A program made the position numbers and the translations under genes. A DNA stretch of 64,000 nucleotides from Lachnospiraceae bacterium (GTDB taxonomy: Bacteria > Bacillota > Clostridia > Lachnospirales > Lachnospiraceae): the NCBI GenBank assembly GCA_017994075.1, contig JAGOLM010000002.1, positions 6,636 through 70,635 on the forward strand, in the 5' to 3' direction. The stretch's first letter is position 1. Every line of letters begins with the position of its first letter. The notes beneath the pieces are model-generated. The model was given only the letters and a program-made list of their open reading frames with translations. It did no database searches and was not told the DNA's origin. This document shows positions 11,496-21,291 of the stretch, piece by piece.

Positions 11496-12254
11496 CTATA
11501 TCTTTTCAGTGATCTTCTTGCCCAACAAAAGGCAAAAAATATATGCGATCATACAAGCAGTCATGATTATGTGTCCCGCCGCACCAGCATACATAGGCAT
11601 AATAAATCCTGCTGCCGTAAGTCGAATGTATATAATGATAAATACTGGCATTATGCTCATTATTTTCATCTCCAGCCTCTTTTCCGCAGTAATGACATCG
11701 ATGTCCATCATGATCTCAATATTCTCGCTTATCTTATCTGCTGTATGACGTATGTTCCTGACATAATCACCGCCCATCCTTTTGGCATATATAAATATTT
11801 CAGCGAATTCTTTCACTTCATCCAATCCGATTTCATTTGAAAAATCCCAAAAAGCTTCTTCAATTGACCTATTCAGGCAAACTTCCGAATTGATCTTGTG
11901 AAGTTTATCTTTCATATAGGATTCATCCCCATACTGGATGCAAAGCTCTCTTTCTTCCTCGAGAAACGCCTTCTCTATTGATAGACCACCTGATAGAAAT
12001 GAGGCAACACCAATTAAGAATTCTCGATATTCTTCTCTAAATTTTCTGACGAAGTCTTCCCTTGCCTTTTTCTTCTGATATAAATTATTTATCACGTAAA
12101 TAATCGGAAATATGACCATTCCCCAAATGCTGTCATATACAATCCAAGACACCAGAATTGCCTCTGTAAAACTTATAAGCACTGTTTTTATTCTAGGTTG
12201 AATCCTGCTATTTCTGCCTTCCCTTTGTTCTGAAGTATGTCCTTTTTTACCCAT
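11496..12254 (-). CDS. tadB: TadB/T2SS-F platform protein
   Basis: LSGGLSIEKAF...EVKEFAEIFIYAKRMGGD...TAEKRLEMKIMSIMP. Lies directly downstream of cpaF. Confidence 0.85.
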   Translation of the reverse strand: MGKKGHTSEQREGRNSRIQPRIKTVLISFTEAILVSWIVYDSIWGMVIFPIIYVINNLYQKKKAREDFVRKFREEYREFLIGVASFLSGGLSIEKAFLEEERELCIQYGDESYMKDKLHKINSEVCLNRSIEEAFWDFSNEIGLDEVKEFAEIFIYAKRMGGDYVRNIRHTADKISENIEIMMDIDVITAEKRLEMKIMSIMPVFIIIYIRLTAAGFIMPMYAGAAGHIIMTACMIAYIFCLLLGKKITEKI

Positions 12255-13390
12255 TTGTTTCCTTCTAATTCGTACAGCACCCCTAGCTGTATATCACCAT
12301 TCATAATTCCTCTGACCTCGGCTATTTCTGTTACCCTTCTCTCTCCTGATGCCATTTTCTCAAGATGTACCATAATATCCAATCCAGAGGCAATCTGATT
12401 TTTTATAACTTCTATTGGAAGGTTCTCTGCCATAAGTGACATGCTAATAATTCTAGATATCATATCTTCTGTAGAATTGCCGTGACCGGTACTAAGTCCT
12501 CCATCGTGTCCTGTATTAAATGCCTGCAGCATCTCAAGAGTTTCTGCTCCTCTACATTCACCTACAATGATTCTGTCAGGTCGCATCCTAAGACTCGTTC
12601 GAACCAGATCTCTGATCGTTATCTCTAATCTACCTTCTAGATTTTTATTTCTTCCTTCTAATCTGACCAGATTTTGAACGCCTATGACTCTTAATTCAGC
12701 CGAATCTTCAATAGTTATCACTCGTTCATGTGGGGCGATAAATTCTGTAAGTGCATTTAAGAATGTTGTTTTGCCACTTGATGTTCCCCCTGAAATAAAA
12801 ATGTTGTATCTGCTAACAATTGCCTTTTTCAGGAAATCACTAATTTCTTCATTGATAGTACCAAGTGTCAACAGTTTTTCCATATCTATTGACTCTTTGG
12901 GGAATTTTCTAATGGATATCGTTCCTCCATCAACCGCTACCGGCGGTAATACGATATTCACTCTAGATCCATCCTCTAACCTTGTATCAACGATCGGAAC
13001 ACTTTCATTCACGATTTTATTTTGAGATGCCACAATTCTCTGTATGATATCTTCCAATTTACCCGGTTCTGAAAAATACTTATCAGACTTTTGTATTCTT
13101 CCGTTCTTTTCATAAAAGATATTTAAAGGACCATTGACCATTATTTCTGAAATGTTGTCATCATCCAAAAATTCCTGGATAATATCTAATTTTCGAAGCG
13201 AATAAAAAACATTTTTTTCAATTTGCTTTCTTCTCTCTATGCCAATAGATGTTTCCTTACCTTTTTGGCATATTATCTCTCTTATAGTGCTAAGTACTTC
13301 TCCATCACTTAGCTCTCTATCAAGGTCTAAATCCTTCTTTACCTGTTGACGGATGATCTCTACTATTTTTTCTTCTTGTAATTCTTCCAC
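12188..13390 (-). CDS. cpaF: CpaF/TadA pilus assembly ATPase
   Basis: Walker A GGTSSGKTT, Asp box TIEDSAEL, Walker B RPDRIIVGE, His box NTGHDGGLSTGH. Confidence 0.95.
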   Translation of the reverse strand: MEELQEEKIVEIIRQQVKKDLDLDRELSDGEVLSTIREIICQKGKETSIGIERRKQIEKNVFYSLRKLDIIQEFLDDDNISEIMVNGPLNIFYEKNGRIQKSDKYFSEPGKLEDIIQRIVASQNKIVNESVPIVDTRLEDGSRVNIVLPPVAVDGGTISIRKFPKESIDMEKLLTLGTINEEISDFLKKAIVSRYNIFISGGTSSGKTTFLNALTEFIAPHERVITIEDSAELRVIGVQNLVRLEGRNKNLEGRLEITIRDLVRTSLRMRPDRIIVGECRGAETLEMLQAFNTGHDGGLSTGHGNSTEDMISRIISMSLMAENLPIEVIKNQIASGLDIMVHLEKMASGERRVTEIAEVRGIMNGDIQLGVLYELEGNKWVKKDILQNKGKAEIAGFNLE

Positions 13391-13400
13391 TTTTTCTCAC

Positions 13401-14438
13401 CTATCCCACCGCTCTTACTACTCTGTCGTATCTCTTTACATTGTTTATCCACTTGCCTGGATTATCGTGCATAAGTTCAACTATATCGAATTTTCTTCCA
13501 AACTCTTTATCTCGATCCTCTAATCGAACCTCCTGAACAGATATGTTTAGCTTCTTTCTCTCCAGATAGTACTCATATTTTTTCATGCATTCTTCAGCGT
13601 ACTCATCATTTCCTTCCACAAGTATGATCTCGCTTAGCCCCTTCATGATTCCATTTATTTCATTTCCCATTTCTCCTATTACAATCACAACCACATCAAA
13701 AGGACTTTGTTTTAATTTTGCTGCCAGTTGGCTCCACTGCTCTTTTTCTATTTCCCACAGTTCTGCAGGATCCGACACCGGAGCCATATACGCCAGTCCA
13801 TCATAGAAATTGACATAATCTCCTAAAGATATTTCATACTCCGCTGTCTCTGTCGACAATGCATACATATAATCTGTAAGGTTATGGATCGGATCTTTTC
13901 CTACCACTTTATTTAAATAGGAATTTGCTTCGAGATCCACTAAGAGAACTTTTCCATTGTTTTTGCAAATATTACTGTAGACAAGTGAAAATGGAAGTTT
14001 CAGTCTGTTGTGACTAGGAGAATAAACACCTATCAGCTTACTGTCGCTTCCTGAACAATTCTTAGAAGCATTTTTTAATGTAAACCGCTCCAGTTTCTCC
14101 ATAAATGTTCTCATATCTTGAAATTTATATAGATGATTCATGCCTATCTCCGGAACATCATTGGCACCTAAGAGCTGTATATCCACCGATTTCCCCTTGC
14201 TTTTATCTTGGAGTTTAATTCCATCATCTCTATCACCATCTAGTAATTCATCATGGATATTCCCGATAAAATCTTTTGTCAATAGTCTTACATCAAAAGT
14301 GTTGCTTGATGAAATGTATCCATCTGTATCCGAGAAGCATGTGATATCATACTCGTCACTGTCTCCCATCAGGTATCCCACCAACGCTCTTAAGTAGCTG
14401 ACATCCATATCGCATATTAGCATCTTTGTTTTTTTCAT
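13401..14438 (-). CDS. TadZ/CpaE-like protein (receiver-like N-terminus, degenerate ParA/MinD-like domain)
   Basis: LICDMDVSY receiver-like start. IGVYSP motif with no GKT. VLLVDLE strand. Sits just upstream of cpaF. Start moved to ATG 14438 after GGAGGT. Confidence 0.65.
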   Translation of the reverse strand: MKKTKMLICDMDVSYLRALVGYLMGDSDEYDITCFSDTDGYISSSNTFDVRLLTKDFIGNIHDELLDGDRDDGIKLQDKSKGKSVDIQLLGANDVPEIGMNHLYKFQDMRTFMEKLERFTLKNASKNCSGSDSKLIGVYSPSHNRLKLPFSLVYSNICKNNGKVLLVDLEANSYLNKVVGKDPIHNLTDYMYALSTETAEYEISLGDYVNFYDGLAYMAPVSDPAELWEIEKEQWSQLAAKLKQSPFDVVVIVIGEMGNEINGIMKGLSEIILVEGNDEYAEECMKKYEYYLERKKLNISVQEVRLEDRDKEFGRKFDIVELMHDNPGKWINNVKRYDRVVRAVG

Positions 14439-14440
14439 TT

Positions 14441-14965
14441 TTACCTCCAAATCAATACAATAAGTTCTGTTAAAAAAGCGCCTATAAACATAAATGGTAC
14501 CATTGCTATTTTTCCCGACTCCGCCTCATCCCTGGGATAATGTATGATTTTCTTTTCAATTGATATTTGATAGATATAATTGCCTAACACATATATCCTA
14601 CGCATCAATTCCCCACGAAATATCATTACCGTCAGTGAATATGTCCCTGCTGTTATAAATATCATTCCTGTAAAAAGAACCGCCCATTCCCTTGGTACCA
14701 TTGAAGATATAACTGCAATCACTTTAATATCTCCGGCTCCCAATACTCTTGCTGCAAATAATATAAATAGAATTATGATCGGACATATGAGACTGATTAA
14801 CCATTCCTCAATCCCATTAATGTTTCCGGCTACTGCAGCTCTTATCAATGTCACTATCAGTCCTATCAGAATATATACATTTGGAATTCTTTTTTTCTTA
14901 AAATCAAATATTGTTGCCCCTGATAGGAATATCAGGATAAAAGCTATATCTATTTCATTCGGCAT
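14441..14965 (-). CDS. cpaA: A24 prepilin peptidase CpaA/TadV
   Basis: IFDFKKKRIPN and LGAGDIK catalytic Asp motifs. First gene of the Tad operon. Start at 14965 after GAGGAG. Confidence 0.88.
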   Translation of the reverse strand: MPNEIDIAFILIFLSGATIFDFKKKRIPNVYILIGLIVTLIRAAVAGNINGIEEWLISLICPIIILFILFAARVLGAGDIKVIAVISSMVPREWAVLFTGMIFITAGTYSLTVMIFRGELMRRIYVLGNYIYQISIEKKIIHYPRDEAESGKIAMVPFMFIGAFLTELIVLIWR

Positions 14966-15091
14966 TTTATCTCCTCTCATCGTGTAGAGATTATATTCTC
15001 CGTTTACCCTGATTTACATAGCACCTCGTGCAAGTTTCATTTTTGTTAAATATGCTGAAATTTATCTTTTTTGCGATTAATTTATTCTTTC

Positions 15092-15150: not shown

Positions 15151-15187
15151 AAAAAAAGAAGAAGATTCTATAAAAAATCTTCTTCTT
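15151..15187 (-). terminator. Intrinsic terminator after fliS
   Basis: 12-bp stem AAGAAGAAGATT/AATCTTCTTCTT with a T-run on the minus strand. Confidence 0.8.
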
Positions 15188-15238: not shown

Positions 15239-15715
15239 TTACACTAGAAATCCTCTTCTGGAATCGTAATTTTCCTGCATTCCCGTCACATCATTCCTAT
15301 CATAGGTCAGGCCAAATGTTATCTTTTCTGCATTTTTCATCAGTGGTGCACTATTATCACTTTGTGCAAGCTGCACAAAGGATTCCCTGAGATTTGACAT
15401 TACTTTCAAGGTATCTTCGAGGTATTTATCATCTCTTGAATAAATTGACTTTGAGATACATCTATCACAGTAATCATAAAGAGTATACAGATTACGGGAC
15501 TGCGGATATCTAAAATCAAGATCATTCTTCAGATGAAGTATTACTCTCGATGCATTATGACAAGAATTCTTATACTCGTCATTGTTACCATCTTGGAGTG
15601 CTTTATGAGATTCATCTATGTATTTATTATAAATGTCAAACAGAACAACTATTAGCTCTGTTCTGTTACTCTGTATAATTCTCTGGGTATATTCTTTGAT
15701 TTCTTCAGATGTCAT
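15239..15715 (-). CDS. fliS: Flagellin chaperone FliS paralog with C-terminal extension
   Basis: ELIVVLFD...ILHLKNDLDFRYPQSRNLYTLYDYC FliS pattern. Directly downstream of the flagellin. Confidence 0.8.
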   Translation of the reverse strand: MTSEEIKEYTQRIIQSNRTELIVVLFDIYNKYIDESHKALQDGNNDEYKNSCHNASRVILHLKNDLDFRYPQSRNLYTLYDYCDRCISKSIYSRDDKYLEDTLKVMSNLRESFVQLAQSDNSAPLMKNAEKITFGLTYDRNDVTGMQENYDSRRGFLV

Positions 15716-15765
15716 ACTTTTTCCTCTTTATATATCTTCTCGTTTCTTCAAAATATCTGTCTCTT

Positions 15766-15797
15766 AATCAATAAAGTAAATCTTCTGTTTATTGATT
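15766..15797 (-). other. Intercistronic stem-loop 3' of flagellin
   Basis: AATCAATAAA/TTTATTGATT 10-bp stem with 12-nt loop and no U-tail. May stabilise the flagellin mRNA. Confidence 0.55.
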
Positions 15798-15800
15798 TAA

Positions 15801-17243
15801 TTATTTCTGAAGAAGCTGCAGTGCTGTCTGAGGAATCTCATTGGCCTGTGACAGTACACTTGTAGCTGCCTGCTGGAGAACATTATACCTAGTATAATCC
15901 GCCATCTCCACTGCCATATCTGAATCTTCGATACGAGAAACTGCTGAGTTCATATTTTCATCTGTTTCATCCAGACTCATTACTGTACTCTCAAGACGAT
16001 TCTGGTTAGCTCCCATTCCTGATCTTATCTCGCTTACCCTGGCAATTGCCTTATCGAGATTAGCCATGGCTCTGTCCGGACCACCTGCTTTTGTTACATC
16101 TATTTCATCCAGATACATATTTTCAGAACTTATTGATGGTATTCTAACCTTCATATTCTGACTCTCATTAGCTCCGATCTGGAGAACCATTGGGCCTATG
16201 TCTGATACTTCTATATCCAGATCACCCGTTGACCATCCACTGATTACTGTTCCTGTTCCATCCTTTACAGCATCATTTTGAGCGAGAAACTCCATCTCGA
16301 ATCCATTTGTATCTGTAACGGTGTACCTATTTCCATCTGTGTTGACTGTAGCCTGTTTGCTAAATCCAAACACCGGTGGATTTGTGGTCAGATCCTCTGT
16401 TTTTAAAGTAATATCGGCGTCTGTTCCATAACTGGTTGTCTTTAGGTCGGTAAATCCAAAATAATCTCTTAGTCCTTCATTACCAAAAACAACCTCTACG
16501 CTGCTGCTCTTTCCATAAAAATTTGAAGATATCTTAAGGGGATCTCCCTCATTGGATATCTGACAAGATGCTTCCTCTGCACCCTTCCTTAGTGATTCGT
16601 ATACTTCACTTGCGCTCATTCCCTCTGTGATCTTGATACCTACGCCATTGATTTTCATAGCTCCTGCCTGAGCTGCAGTCACAGTTCCTGTAAGCGGAGT
16701 CGCTGTAGCATTAGAAGTACTGGCTTGTTCAGCTGCTGAATTTATTGTCATTTTATAGGTTCCTGGTGTGACAGATTCACTTACGTACGTTCTGGAAAAA
16801 TGCTCCCCATAAACTCTGGTATCAAGAGAGCCATCCAAAAGTGATTTTGTATTGAATTCTGTATCCGTAGATACTCGATCGATTTCATTTCTAAGAGAAC
16901 CAATCTCTTTTTGAACAGCTCCCCTTTCATCTGGTGAATTAAGTTCATTAGCCGCCTGAACTGATAGCTCTCTCATTCTCTGAAGCATGCTTGTAACTTC
17001 TGAAAGTGCTCCATCAGCTGTCTGAATCACACTTACTCCATCGTTAGCATTCTGTGATGCTCTGCCTAATCCTTTGATCTGCGTATGCATTTTACCAGAA
17101 ATAGCCATTCCTGATGGATCATCCTTGGAATGATTGATTTTTAATCCACTTGAAAGTCTCTGCATTGCTGCAGTCAGATTATCTTCCGTTCTTAAAAGCT
17201 GTTTATTTGTTACAACTGCTGAGATATTATTATTGATTTTCAT
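15801..17243 (-). CDS. fliC: Flagellin (480 aa) with central variable domain
   Basis: N-terminal RLSSGLKIN...DDPSGMAI...NANDGVSVIQTADGAL...LQRMRELSVQA. C-terminal GANQNRLE...SRIEDSDMAVEM...LSQAN. Confidence 0.95.
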   Translation of the reverse strand: MKINNNISAVVTNKQLLRTEDNLTAAMQRLSSGLKINHSKDDPSGMAISGKMHTQIKGLGRASQNANDGVSVIQTADGALSEVTSMLQRMRELSVQAANELNSPDERGAVQKEIGSLRNEIDRVSTDTEFNTKSLLDGSLDTRVYGEHFSRTYVSESVTPGTYKMTINSAAEQASTSNATATPLTGTVTAAQAGAMKINGVGIKITEGMSASEVYESLRKGAEEASCQISNEGDPLKISSNFYGKSSSVEVVFGNEGLRDYFGFTDLKTTSYGTDADITLKTEDLTTNPPVFGFSKQATVNTDGNRYTVTDTNGFEMEFLAQNDAVKDGTGTVISGWSTGDLDIEVSDIGPMVLQIGANESQNMKVRIPSISSENMYLDEIDVTKAGGPDRAMANLDKAIARVSEIRSGMGANQNRLESTVMSLDETDENMNSAVSRIEDSDMAVEMADYTRYNVLQQAATSVLSQANEIPQTALQLLQK

Positions 17244-17305
17244 GTCTTACCTCTTTCGTTTCCATATCATTTTGCTTCATCCGAGCAATCAAACCATTTC
17301 AGGTC

Positions 17306-20300
17306 TTAATTTCTCTGACTTAAAGTGTCGATAAATGCTTTTGCCACAGAATACAATTTTTTTGTAGAAACTGCATCTGTTTCATTGTTATCTACATTTC
17401 TCTGATATAGATCCATTATATCTGAAATGTCATTTTTTTTAATTTCAAGATTTGCATTGAGGCCAGACTCTTTTGATATCCGTTCTTCGAGTTCTGATTG
17501 TTTGTTTAGAAAATATTCCTCATAAGATTTGTCAGTAGTTTCGATCTTTCCTGTCACCCCTTCAGAATCTGCCTTAAATGAAGCTCGGGTTTTTGCAGAC
17601 TCACTACTCTCAATAAATATATCGACAAGTCCGCGATTTTCTTCACCCCTAACTATCTTTAATGTCATAACTCCATTTTGATCAGCAACCATTACCGGAA
17701 TATGGTATATTTCGTCATCAGCCATTTTCCCATATAGTGACAGCTCCTTGCTCATGGCTTGAATTGCCTTTAGATCTAAATATTCTCCATTTTCTGACCC
17801 TGCAAAATTCTTCATGACATTTTCTGCCTGATCTGCCAGATGCTCTTGTGCCTCTGCCATTTCTTCTGGGGTTTTACAAGCCTTCCCGTACTTTTCCATA
17901 AGCTGTTGCGTCATAGCCTTTATATCAGGATTATCTATATCTACCAAAGATCCATCTGCATTAACATGATATTTAGCCAATTGATCAAATACTTTTCTTC
18001 CATTTGAGATCATATTATAGGTGGCCGCAAGATTTGCCGGTGATGTTGGAATATCCATTTTTTCAAGAATATTATAGATCTTATCCTCTTGAACAACTGA
18101 GCTTTTGATCTCATTTGATCTGTATTCATACCAAGCTTGATTTTCTTCATCAATTTTATTTTGATTTTCTTTATTATCTCCGTCTTGATCTTGGTATTGA
18201 AGCGCTGTATCAAACTGTTCAGGAGTCATATCTATATATGCATTCTCTCCTCCCATGGCATGAAGTTTCGCAGGCGTCATGGTTTCTTCAGCATTCTTGA
18301 GATGACTCTTATGGAATGATAATTCGATCTGCTGTGTAATATTTAGCTCTTCTGTTTTTACTTCTTTTGTTATTCCAAAATTATCATCTATTGAAACTTC
18401 CTGGCCCTCATGCTTTTTAGACCTAACAGCTGTCATCATATTTCTCATCGTTACTGATGTATTCTGATGTAAAAGCTGTCCAATAACTGCACCATCAGAT
18501 TCATTTACCTGATGAATCAATCTATATATTCCGATGTAGCTCTTTTTTTCCGTATCTGTTATGTCTTTATTTTTTTCTGCTTTCCACAAGAACTCTGCCA
18601 TATCTTGTGATTTTTTATCTGCTGAATCCGAACCATCATTATAGTTTTCTGCCTCTGTACTTAACTCCTCCATGGACATATCAAGTGGATTCTTCCCATC
18701 TTTTATCATCGAAAGAACTGTTTTGGGAGTTAATTCCTTTAACGTTTTTTGAACCAATTCGTCTGAGGCTTTTACTGAAAGTATATTTTCATCTGTGATT
18801 TCAAGACTATTATAGCCAAGTATTCTTATAGCCCTTCGGTTCTCATCGGATGTATCGTATCCCATATCATTTAGAATCGTATCAACATTTCCAAATGCCT
18901 TTTTTATTGAATCTCCAAGATCTTTTCTAACCTCTGTTCCTACAGCATCATATGTATCTGTCATTTTATCATAGGCTTTTCTTTGAACTATTTTTTCAAA
19001 GTTCGTCGCCTTTTCTTCGAAGCTGTTCTTTACTCTCTGTCCATCTTCATATACTTTTTGGAATGACACATACCCTATATACTTATATGATCCTATAAGC
19101 GATGCAGGAAGATCTGACATCTCATCGGCTTCGGATATGGTCTTGGTATATAATTCCTTTTCACTATCATTCAAATCTGAAATAGAACCTGATGACATAT
19201 TAGTTATCTCATTTATCATATTTAAGATCGGTTCTGTTTCAATATTAATGCCTAGCTTCTGAAGTGTCACCAACGAATCTCTTGTCATGATGTTTTTAGC
19301 ATTATTTAATAAGTCCTGTGCTGACATACCTGTAGCAGATGTGGCGGTAGCAACAATGTTCAACGCTGATGTGCCTGATCCTGTTTTGGACTCTATCATA
19401 ATTTCAACTGATATTATCCTAAGTGCCTTTATATTTAATGTATTAACGTCAGACTTCGCATTTTGAACTTTTTCAGGTTCGGCATTCTCAATTGTGGAAA
19501 TTGCTTCATCTGCCTGATCCTGCATTGAGAACCCAGCAATGACACAAGCATCCTGAGGTTTCCTACCATTCGAAATCGTATCAATAATATTATCCGAAAC
19601 CGACTTGGAATCTAACACTGGATTATTGATAAGTTTATTTAGAAAAGTAAGATTTTCCGGTGTGACCGGAAGGTCTTCACTTAACAACCACGCTGCTTCT
19701 TTCTGTGACTCTGAATCATTTTTTATTCCTGCTTCATTTATAACTTTTCCCAAACTATCCTCTAGTTCCTTTGGAACATCGGTGTTCTGAACAGCTTCAT
19801 TAATTGAAATATCATCTGCTGTATTTCCAGCAAAAACGGCCTGGTAAACATTGTCAATCGTCGGTTCCTTGCCATTTTTTATAAGATATTTAGCTGTATC
19901 CTGGGTAATTTCTTTTGAGTCATCAGCTCCGAGCTTAGTTCCTATTTCCTGAAATTTAAAATCGGCTTCTTTGACATTCTTAATAGTATCAGCGTCTACC
20001 GGAAGATCGGCTGCTTTCAGATTTCTTTCTATTCCTGATGCAACACCGACGTTTCCCGTTACCTTTTCTATTGTCTCACTGTCAAGACCACCCATGGCAC
20101 TGACATCTACTCCGCCCTTTGCAAGGCTTACTTTAATTTTATCAGAAACGGTCACAAAGTCCTTGGGATCTATATTCTCTGGAGATAGTCCCTGATTTTG
20201 CATTTCCTGTATATCTTTTCCTGTGGTATTCATTACAAACATAATAAATCCGTTACGTCTGGTTTTTTCTTCGTTTTCGTTCTGCGGAATATCATCCACC

Positions 20301-20509
20301 ACACTTTTTCCGTTTTTACCATACGAATCAGAGTTTATATTTATTTTTCGCAAAAATGATGACGCCGTAATTTCTTTTGTATCTGAATCTTTATTCTGAA
20401 TTGCCTTCGTTCCATCCGTGGAAGATTTGGATAATTCCCTTATCCCCTTGCCTTCATCTCGATACGGTTTAACATAATTCGCTATCTGTCGAAGCAATTC
20501 TTCTCTCAT
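17306..20509 (-). CDS. Very large acidic FliK-like / DUF6240-like protein (about 1067 aa)
   Basis: Long helical acidic body with repeated L-x3-[GD]-[LI]-x3-x-[ED]N units. Beta-rich C-terminal domain (YHIPVMV...MTLKIVRG...LVDIFIE...ASFKA) reminiscent of FliK-C. Start moved to ATG 20509. Confidence 0.6.
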   Translation of the reverse strand: MREELLRQIANYVKPYRDEGKGIRELSKSSTDGTKAIQNKDSDTKEITASSFLRKININSDSYGKNGKSVVDDIPQNENEEKTRRNGFIMFVMNTTGKDIQEMQNQGLSPENIDPKDFVTVSDKIKVSLAKGGVDVSAMGGLDSETIEKVTGNVGVASGIERNLKAADLPVDADTIKNVKEADFKFQEIGTKLGADDSKEITQDTAKYLIKNGKEPTIDNVYQAVFAGNTADDISINEAVQNTDVPKELEDSLGKVINEAGIKNDSESQKEAAWLLSEDLPVTPENLTFLNKLINNPVLDSKSVSDNIIDTISNGRKPQDACVIAGFSMQDQADEAISTIENAEPEKVQNAKSDVNTLNIKALRIISVEIMIESKTGSGTSALNIVATATSATGMSAQDLLNNAKNIMTRDSLVTLQKLGINIETEPILNMINEITNMSSGSISDLNDSEKELYTKTISEADEMSDLPASLIGSYKYIGYVSFQKVYEDGQRVKNSFEEKATNFEKIVQRKAYDKMTDTYDAVGTEVRKDLGDSIKKAFGNVDTILNDMGYDTSDENRRAIRILGYNSLEITDENILSVKASDELVQKTLKELTPKTVLSMIKDGKNPLDMSMEELSTEAENYNDGSDSADKKSQDMAEFLWKAEKNKDITDTEKKSYIGIYRLIHQVNESDGAVIGQLLHQNTSVTMRNMMTAVRSKKHEGQEVSIDDNFGITKEVKTEELNITQQIELSFHKSHLKNAEETMTPAKLHAMGGENAYIDMTPEQFDTALQYQDQDGDNKENQNKIDEENQAWYEYRSNEIKSSVVQEDKIYNILEKMDIPTSPANLAATYNMISNGRKVFDQLAKYHVNADGSLVDIDNPDIKAMTQQLMEKYGKACKTPEEMAEAQEHLADQAENVMKNFAGSENGEYLDLKAIQAMSKELSLYGKMADDEIYHIPVMVADQNGVMTLKIVRGEENRGLVDIFIESSESAKTRASFKADSEGVTGKIETTDKSYEEYFLNKQSELEERISKESGLNANLEIKKNDISDIMDLYQRNVDNNETDAVSTKKLYSVAKAFIDTLSQRN

Positions 20510-20584
20510 ATTTTGTCCTGTTCTGGAATTATTTTTATTACACTTACATATTCTATTTCGGATTAAACGGGATTTTCTTAATAA

Positions 20585-20682
20585 AAATAACCAGAATATT
20601 TTCAATTATCTATGAAAGTATATACCATGCAATTCCGTATATATAACATCCATAAATTATCGATAAAATATTCTGGTTATTT
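20585..20682. repeat. Perfect 18-bp inverted repeat enclosing 62 bp
   Basis: 20585-20602 AAATAACCAGAATATTTT and 20665-20682 AAAATATTCTGGTTATTT are exact reverse complements. Confidence 0.92.
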
Positions 20683-20691: not shown

Positions 20692-21291
20692 CTACAGTGC
20701 TATGCGGCCTTCAAGAGCTCGAAGCAATGTAACCTCATCTATATTTTCAATATCTCCGCCTACCGGAACTCCACTGGCAATTCTGGTAACTTTGACTCCT
20801 GTAGGTTTGATCAGCTTGCTTAAATACATAGCTGTTGTCTCACCCTCCAGGCTGGAATTCGTTGCAATTATAACTTCGTCTATGTCATCTTTCTGCAGAC
20901 GAACCATTAGTTCTTTTAATCGAATATCCTCAGGCCCGATCCCTTGCATAGGTGAAATGGCACCATGAAGCACATGGTATACACCATCATATTTCCCAGT
21001 TTTTTCATATGCCACCAGATCCCTTGTGTCTTCTACCACCATTATTTCCTTGTGATTCCTTTTAGGGTTCTTACATATAGGACATATATCTTGATCTGTC
21101 AGGGTATAACATTCCTTGCAATAATGCACATTTTCTCTTGCACTAATAAGGGAATCCGCTATCCTCTTCACATCTTCTTTGGGCAGATGAAGAATATGAA
21201 ACGCCAGTCTCTGGGCAGATTTCGGTCCGATTCCCGGAAGTGATGAGAGACTCTCTATCAGTCGTGATATCTCACTGCTGTAATAATCCAT
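20692..21291 (-). CDS. recR: Recombination mediator RecR
   Basis: LPGIGPKSAQRLAFH HhH motif, C4 Zn finger, Toprim motif EGETTA...ASGVPVGGDIE. Confidence 0.97.
   Translation of the reverse strand: MDYYSSEISRLIESLSSLPGIGPKSAQRLAFHILHLPKEDVKRIADSLISARENVHYCKECYTLTDQDICPICKNPKRNHKEIMVVEDTRDLVAYEKTGKYDGVYHVLHGAISPMQGIGPEDIRLKELMVRLQKDDIDEVIIATNSSLEGETTAMYLSKLIKPTGVKVTRIASGVPVGGDIENIDEVTLLRALEGRIAL

Follow-up and report, generated by a model that had tools for sequence, protein, structure and literature searches.

Here, we propose that three co-oriented genes on the minus strand of contig JAGOLM010000002.1 of a Lachnospiraceae bacterium form a late flagellar operon. In the 64,000-nucleotide stretch that was analysed (the window), these genes encode a giant 1067-amino-acid (aa) protein of the DUF6240 family (positions 17306-20509), a 480-aa flagellin (15801-17243) and a 158-aa paralog of FliS (15239-15715), and the open reading frames (ORFs) lie, as an initial annotation had stated, between recR and a Tad-like pilus operon. 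Judged from sequence, it is well supported that this is a sigma-28-type operon combining a T3S4-superfamily giant, a flagellin lineage that is separate throughout the order Lachnospirales, and a FliS-type chaperone paralog. Nearly all flagellated relatives retain the three genes, so that the set has the appearance of a late-stage component of their flagellar machinery that has not been described before. As a late-expressed T3S4 protein, the giant would most likely control export or act as a ruler during the filament stage.

FliK-type switch proteins are known to act once, at hook completion. If our proposal is true, the conservation of a third, late-expressed T3S4-domain protein in practically all flagellated members of a major gut order (including Roseburia, Agathobacter, and Pseudobutyrivibrio) would imply an undescribed layer of control on flagellin export. 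In the human gut, the flagellins of these bacteria are dominant as TLR5 ligands and as antigens in Crohn's disease, and a factor deciding which flagellin is exported, and how much of it, would bear on host-microbe immunology and on flagellar assembly alike. We found no description of the family in the literature on DUF6240, PF19753, FliK paralogs, and Lachnospiraceae motility loci. Pfam holds DUF6240 only as a domain of unknown function, the NCBI names are "DUF6240 domain-containing protein" and "hypothetical protein", and NCBIfam has no model matching the giant protein. Neither of two accounts of Roseburia and Eubacterium motility loci (Neville 2013, PMC3720852; a 2025 motility-loci preprint) mentions the second fliS or the giant gene.

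Conservation, late promoter motif and genomic setting

Co-occurrence in relatives, a check that the initial annotation had put forward, was assessed in 41 genomes, taken from the window genome's own genus and family and from 16 further families of the order. DUF6240 is present in 31 of the 41, and these are exactly the genomes with a FliK match of canonical strength (E<=2e-15). All 31 have two or three FliS genes, and in every one of them the second is a tailed FliS. Conversely, eight of the 41 relatives have no flagellin, FliK or FliS, and DUF6240 occurs in none of the eight. The three genes are also adjacent in all 20 loci fetched from relatives in several families of the order, in the order giant-flagellin-fliS in 18 and flagellin-giant-fliS in the other two. 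A chance gene neighbourhood was considered and rejected, being excluded by the order-wide co-occurrence and adjacency.

Two observations concern individual relatives. G002 and G003, of the same genus as the window genome, have flagellar remnants only, without DUF6240 and without a FliK of canonical strength; they retain a single FliS-like gene, an ORF with weaker Flg_hook similarity, and ORFs resembling flagellin, among them one of 1101 aa at G002:C98:34510 that matches Flagellin_N, and may be in a degenerate or different flagellar state. G032, by comparison, has two full DUF6240/flagellin/FliS sets on its contig C17 (at ~28.0-32.7 kb and 69.0-73.6 kb) and three FliS genes in all.

A wider scan with one genome per species yielded at least 597 DUF6240 loci, of which the best 80 form the basis for the taxonomy and layout counts that follow. 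Their labels are either Lachnospiraceae (Roseburia, Agathobacter, Pseudobutyrivibrio xylanivorans DSM 14809, Lachnobacterium, and Candidatus Weimeria bifida) or less specific (Eubacterium sp., Clostridiales bacterium, "bacterium"). All three genes are adjacent in 44 of these 80 loci. About 29 loci, most of which bear the labels Roseburia, Agathobacter or Lachnobacterium, show the giant gene without either partner linked to it. In six of the latter that were inspected, the giant gene stands alone downstream of glgB, and in six Roseburia/Agathobacter-type genomes that were searched, the flagellin and tailed-FliS pair is located away from it. The initial annotation had called the three genes a stand-alone module, a description that needs correcting: they are a near-universal, not an optional, part of the order's flagellar gene set, and in those six genomes the giant gene is itself unlinked. 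Outside the order, two Clostridia genomes have the same three-gene layout round a divergent large ORF (964 and 798 aa). The 798-aa relative (locus L096 in G305, from another Clostridia family) stands with its flagellin and FliS beside dnaX and recR, as in the window; because this setting is shared, the recR neighbourhood may be ancestral and not a coincidence.

Late expression, likewise suggested in the initial annotation, is supported by a conserved sigma-28 (SigD)-like promoter motif. In the window it reads TTAAG-N14-TCCGAAAT on the minus strand (20555-20581, read from 20581), about 72 nucleotides (nt) 5' of the ATG of the giant gene. We scored the motif class T[AT]A[AG]-N13-16-[GCT]CGA[TA]A[TAC] at 20-130 nt upstream of DUF6240 genes from many genera and found it upstream of 37 of 100, versus 1-4 of 100 shuffled upstream regions, 0-1 of 101 stretches within the DUF6240 genes themselves, and 0 of 100 antisense regions; with such a difference from the controls, the motif is not a chance match. 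It is often retained by giant genes that stand alone. The open frame of the giant gene extends to a TTG at 20605, and the ATG at 20509 was taken as the start because an AGGA lies 7 nt 5' of it and because a homolog with 93% identity is also 1067 aa long.

No hook, cap or basal-body gene adjoins the three-gene unit, in agreement with the initial annotation; those genes map to contigs C12 and C95 of the 1.66-Mb assembly (126 contigs, ~95.5% complete). C12 carries one flagellar operon with flgB, flgC, fliE to fliJ, FliK, flgD, flgE, motAB, and fliLMN, followed further on by flhB, at C12:21227-22354, and flhA. Its canonical FliK (565 aa, Flg_hook E 1.7e-16) is encoded between fliJ and flgD. C95 carries genes for FliD, canonical FliS (E 2.1e-39), FliW, and a FlaG-like protein, the last assigned only by its position beside fliD and its size, and two additional flagellins are encoded on C22 and C126. 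The canonical fliK, fliS and flagellin genes that were to be looked for elsewhere in the genome are thus all present, and since canonical FliK, FliS, FliD, and FlhB are encoded outside the window, the giant protein is an addition to the machinery and not a replacement within it. That the three genes belong to a second flagellar system was rejected, as the 1.66-Mb genome has one basal-body operon.

The genome encodes one further protein of this kind. At C48:12251-14820, a 642-aa Flg_hook ORF and a 95-aa FlhB-C-like ORF flank yraN, downstream of rnhB, the shorter ORF lying at 14533-14820; by the names used in Bacillus subtilis, these are a YlqG/YlqH-like pair. The giant protein is therefore additional to the canonical FliK, as the initial annotation had it, but it is the third and not the second protein of Flg_hook type. 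The C48 protein differs from it in being half the size, in being unlinked to flagellin or FliS, and in its housekeeping neighbourhood (rnhB, yraN). An hhalign comparison of the 642-aa protein with the DUF6240 family nevertheless spans 124 columns (E 1.4e-4, probability 52%) and takes in the helix and "Y.IP" beta hairpin ahead of the T3S4 core, and in the relatives, weak DUF6240 matches (model positions ~125-213) belong to this YlqG-like class. On account of these two matches, the giant protein may derive from the YlqG-like paralog line and not from FliK proper. Short "[LI]P.T..N[LI]" helical modules are also common to the C48 protein and the DUF6240 family.

The T3S4-like domain and the conserved body of the giant protein

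Membership of the giant protein in the DUF6240 family (PF19753) is clear, with a score of 308.7 bits against a cut-off of 26.6 over residues 407-692 (E 4.5e-92). We recovered 553 full-length homologs, and a profile search of 1.84 billion representatives returned 1295 clusters (at 50% identity) at E<=1e-30, nearly all of 950-1240 aa.

The initial annotation described the C-terminus as FliK-C-like, which stands at the level of the family. In full-length orthologs that are 30-36% identical to the window protein over >90% of the length, PF02120 (Flg_hook) scores above its gathering score at ~50-130 residues from the C-terminus, as in P0040 (residues 943-1012, 37.4 bits) and P0063 (36.5 bits). A six-frame Flg_hook search of the relatives also matches DUF6240 ORFs, at 49.1, 44.7, 40.7, 40.1, and 39.9 bits, and at 32.9 bits within the same genus. 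When the last 143 residues of the family are compared by hhalign with canonical FliK C-termini of the same order, the probability is 91% (E 1.1e-6) and the T3S4 core falls at window residues 957-1019. A sequence-detectable T3S4 domain, one of the traits of the FliK family, is thus found in the DUF6240 family through its orthologs and through the profile-profile match. On these sequence comparisons we consider a T3S4-type C-terminal domain to be established for the family, and for the window copy we infer it by alignment.

In the window protein, this T3S4 (FliK C-terminal)-like alpha/beta domain covers residues 934-1064 (17318-17710, minus strand), as delimited by the ortholog Flg_hook matches, hhalign, an AlphaFold2 (AF2) model, and Foldseek. 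Foldseek with the whole 1067-residue model gave nothing significant (the PscP domain ranked 41st by E-value), and for that reason a separate model of the domain was made. This model (predicted local distance difference test (pLDDT) 82, predicted template-modelling score (pTM) 0.77) contains six beta strands together with three helices, of which two are long. The sole structural neighbour of this model with a probability above 0.5 is the substrate-switch (SS) domain of the injectisome ruler PscP (5cuk; probability 0.92, template-modelling score 0.55, root-mean-square deviation 2.8 Å over 67 columns), but with an E-value of 0.22. Across the family, conservation of the domain is 0.50 over residues 934-1025 and 0.69 at its start. 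The likeness to the YscP/PscP needle-length rulers thus lies in PscP being the best-probability neighbour of the domain model. The differences are that those proteins belong to another secretion system and another phylum, that identity is ~10%, and that the giant protein's domain has an additional N-terminal beta hairpin and a conserved final helix.

Ahead of this domain, the giant protein begins with residues 1-78 (20276-20509), which are poorly conserved (0.28) and predicted to be disordered (AF2 pLDDT <50), and which on this model are a candidate type III export signal. Residues 158-321 (19547-20038) form a first, partial, helical DUF6240 repeat (Pfam E 2.1e-16 on an N-terminal fragment), and second DUF6240 matches also occur within the same ORF in relatives. 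The full DUF6240 domain at residues 407-692 (18434-19291) is the most conserved part of the protein (0.55-0.74), with T525, R528, D530, G532, and D533 among its invariant residues. In the full-length AF2 model (pLDDT 68, pTM 0.40), the disordered residues 1-78 are followed by ~850 residues of short helices, in which "[LI]P.T..N[LI]" helix-turn modules recur. No solved structure resembling the body was found, either with Foldseek and the whole model or in a PDB sequence-profile search with the full alignment, which gave chance matches only. The translation contains 2 Cys in 1067 residues, few Cys being usual in exported flagellar proteins.

How does the giant protein compare with FliK itself? 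Like FliK of Salmonella and Bacillus (PF02120), it has a C-terminal T3S4-type domain, a disordered N-terminus, and membership in the flagellar regulon. Unlike FliK, it is about twice as long (1067 aa versus the 565 aa of the genome's own FliK), and its middle consists of conserved helical DUF6240 repeats in place of a variable spacer. Conservation reaches 0.55-0.75 at body residues 510-750 and 871-900, on par with the switch domain, whereas in canonical FliK of the same order everything ahead of the T3S4 domain is at 0.14-0.33; given these values, the variable middle region of a ruler-type FliK is absent from the giant protein. BLASTP of the giant protein against the genome's own FliK and YlqG-like proteins gave nothing significant. 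Nor does its gene share the setting of FliK, which is encoded and expressed with the early hook genes (fliJ-fliK-flgD-flgE). Instead, it lies between recR and a flagellin gene behind a late sigma-28-type motif, accompanied by the FliS paralog, in a genome where the canonical FliK coexists with it.

A possible role at the filament stage

In light of these features, what might the giant protein do? The account that we favour, with confidence a little better than even, is that the protein appears once the hook is finished, acts on the export gate in the manner of FliK, via the FlhB C-terminal domain (FlhB-C), binds a filament-stage partner with its body, and so controls the export of late substrates. 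The protein would be produced only once the hook-basal body is complete, and its unstructured N-terminus would take it into the flagellar type III export gate. There, the T3S4 domain would contact FlhB-C in FliK-like fashion, or else the FlhB-C-like YlqH paralog, and the conserved helical body would bind a partner of the filament stage, namely the cap, the cognate flagellin, or the complex formed by the FliS paralog. In this way, the protein would switch the export of late substrates, or tune it, while the filament is being built. A possible effect would be on the timing or amount of export of the paired flagellin compared with the multi-copy flagellins, which canonical FliS serves; alternatively, filament growth might be limited. 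An additional contact, for docking or regulation, could come from the tail of the FliS paralog.

Filament-stage control of flagellin export has a functional parallel in Campylobacter jejuni, where FlaG limits filament length and competes with the FliS-flagellin complex for FlhA (PMC11536152). C. jejuni FlaG occupies the niche that we propose here, but it is small and unrelated to the giant protein, and the window genome has its own FlaG-like gene beside fliD. A more ambitious version of our proposal, which we advance only tentatively and think rather doubtful, is that in the flagellar type III system of the Lachnospirales the hook-to-filament switch is followed by another step of substrate control. 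The giant protein, expressed under sigma-28 and exported while the filament grows, would act there through its T3S4 domain on FlhB-C or YlqH, would switch or meter export between the flagellin lineage of the FliS paralog and the multi-copy flagellins of canonical FliS, and would so set filament composition or length.

Several results weigh against export control by a FliK-like ruler at the filament stage. The body is conserved as strongly as the switch domain, which points to a folded binding module and not to a length-measuring spacer. Pfam finds no Flg_hook match in the window copy, even at E<=10, in the last 133 residues or in two larger fragments; a PDB sequence-profile search with the C-terminal alignment returned no FliK, only chance matches; and the E-value of the Foldseek match of the modelled domain to PscP is not significant. 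The six Roseburia/Agathobacter-type genomes with an unlinked giant gene indicate that synteny does not require a strictly cognate flagellin function. Finally, in G001 and G034 the paired flagellin may be the sole flagellin, which would weigh against a role in flagellin ordering, with the caveat that draft assemblies often drop multi-copy flagellin genes.

The conservation of the body leads to the alternative that survives best, although we think it somewhat unlikely: a cytoplasmic, non-secreted T3S4 control protein that binds FlhB-C and whose body is a platform gating FliS-paralog/flagellin complexes. A helical body that is strongly conserved and apparently folded, unlike a ruler, would suit such a protein, as would the presence of the T3S4-like domain. 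Against this stand the disordered and poorly conserved residues 1-78, which have the look of an export signal, and the scarcity of cysteine, as is usual for exported flagellar proteins. There is a precedent in HpaC of Xanthomonas, a T3S4-domain protein that is not secreted and that governs which substrates are chosen, yet is no length ruler (PMC2427183); HpaC differs from the giant protein in being small and injectisome-associated, and it has no detectable sequence relation to it.

Distinctly unlikely, in our view, is a late-exported structural or filament-associated protein (at the junction, associated with the cap, or on the surface) specific to the paired flagellin, in which the FliK-derived domain would be a secretion or docking module only. 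The large conserved helical body, a late promoter motif that appears to be shared with flagellin and chaperone by co-transcription, and a gene order that groups the giant gene with structural late genes are all in keeping with this. However, the protein is without the N- and C-terminal heptad segments of axial proteins, Pfam gives no match to the FlgK, FlgL or FliD families, and the search with the whole model gave no match to flagellar structural proteins. In addition, the T3S4-like domain is conserved across the family at the levels given above, which fits a retained function. That the giant protein is the true hook-length ruler and the main-operon Flg_hook protein does something else is scarcely credible: its architecture (disordered N-terminus, long middle, T3S4-like C-terminus) is FliK-like, but the canonical FliK has a far stronger Flg_hook match and lies between fliJ and flgD/flgE in the early operon, and the late sigma-28-type motif would make the giant protein too late for hook control.

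The paired flagellin, the FliS paralog and flanking sequences

The flagellin that the initial annotation called divergent belongs to a lineage of its own, always paired with the FliS paralog. Flagellin_N (PF00669, 1.2e-40) and Flagellin_C (PF00700, 1.9e-25) both match, so that the N- and C-terminal helical D0/D1 regions of the flagellin family are present. In the flagellin tree, one branch splits the flagellins paired with a tailed FliS (Shimodaira-Hasegawa-like approximate likelihood ratio test (SH-aLRT) support 93) from the multi-copy flagellins of the same genomes (96), and because of this division we regard the paired flagellin as an old, separate lineage. The TLR5-epitope residues Q88, R89, and Q96 are present in the translation of the window flagellin, in the numbering reported for R. 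hominis FlaB (10.1101/2024.12.09.627598), which fits a FlaB-like identity but is no proof of one. Since FlaB was fitted into the cryo-electron microscopy map of the native R. hominis flagellum (10.1101/2024.12.09.627598), the paired lineage, if equal to FlaB, would be a major and not a minor filament component, which is a caveat on the ordering of flagellin types.

The FliS paralog is like FliS (PF02561) in that the fold is kept at residues 8-116, where the Pfam match ends (E 9e-15, 55.4 bits, cut-off 26.7), and in keeping the N-terminal aromatic residue. It falls short of the NCBIfam FliS equivalog TIGR00208 (29.7 bits, under the cut-off of 53.75), and this combination identifies it as a FliS-fold paralog and not the equivalog. 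The paralog further differs from canonical FliS, with which it always coexists, in its conserved tail. The initial annotation had put this tail at about 35 aa beyond the usual fold; in an alignment of 21 paralogs with canonical FliS it comprises ~37 residues (122-158; 15242-15352) that have no counterpart in canonical FliS and are conserved across the order as S.P.M.N...V.AG.TYG...LNE......RGF.A. Pfam gave no match to the tails of four FliS paralogs, and PDB FliS alignments to the paralog stop near residue 121. The paralog most likely chaperones the paired flagellin. FliS binds the C-terminal D0 segment of flagellin and docks at FlhA, and that the paralog does likewise has only indirect support, from its position beside a single flagellin lineage at all loci inspected.

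Several predicted RNA structures accompany the three genes. On the 5' side of the giant gene are recR (20692-21291), ybaB, and dnaX, and between the recR stop and the promoter motif lies a long hairpin with a U-rich tract (20590-20677, minus strand; -28.9 kcal/mol, z -6.8, none of 200 shuffles as stable), which is probably the recR terminator or an insulator of the flagellar unit. The terminator that the initial annotation placed after the three-gene unit is borne out by a 14-base-pair (bp) stem with a T run at 15156-15187 (minus strand, read from 15187; region -24.5 kcal/mol, z -4.9). The intercistronic stem-loop that it reported is present between flagellin and fliS as an AU-rich 10-bp stem (15766-15797, minus strand), but it is weak (-7.9 kcal/mol for the 85-nt spacer, z -2.1). 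The spacer between the giant gene and flagellin measures 62 nt (17244-17305, minus strand) and contains a GGA in the loop of a small hairpin (GCUCGGAUGAAGC) as well as a ribosome-binding site, AAGAGG. Such an arrangement resembles the CsrA sites of flagellin leaders, and FliW is encoded on C95; the spacer folds no better than shuffles (z -0.8).

On the 3' side of the FliS paralog, a prepilin peptidase gene (14441-14980) is followed by Tad-type ATPase and platform genes. The whole Tad-like pilus operon (11496-14980, minus strand) comprises the prepilin peptidase, a 349-aa TadZ/CpaE-like ORF without Pfam matches, a T2SSE ATPase, and a T2SSF platform gene. The same order of genes, from flagellin through tailed FliS and prepilin peptidase to a similar "M.K.K.AIC..D..Y" (Tad-like) ORF, occurs in at least four of seven Roseburia/Agathobacter-type loci (L183-L189), as in the window.

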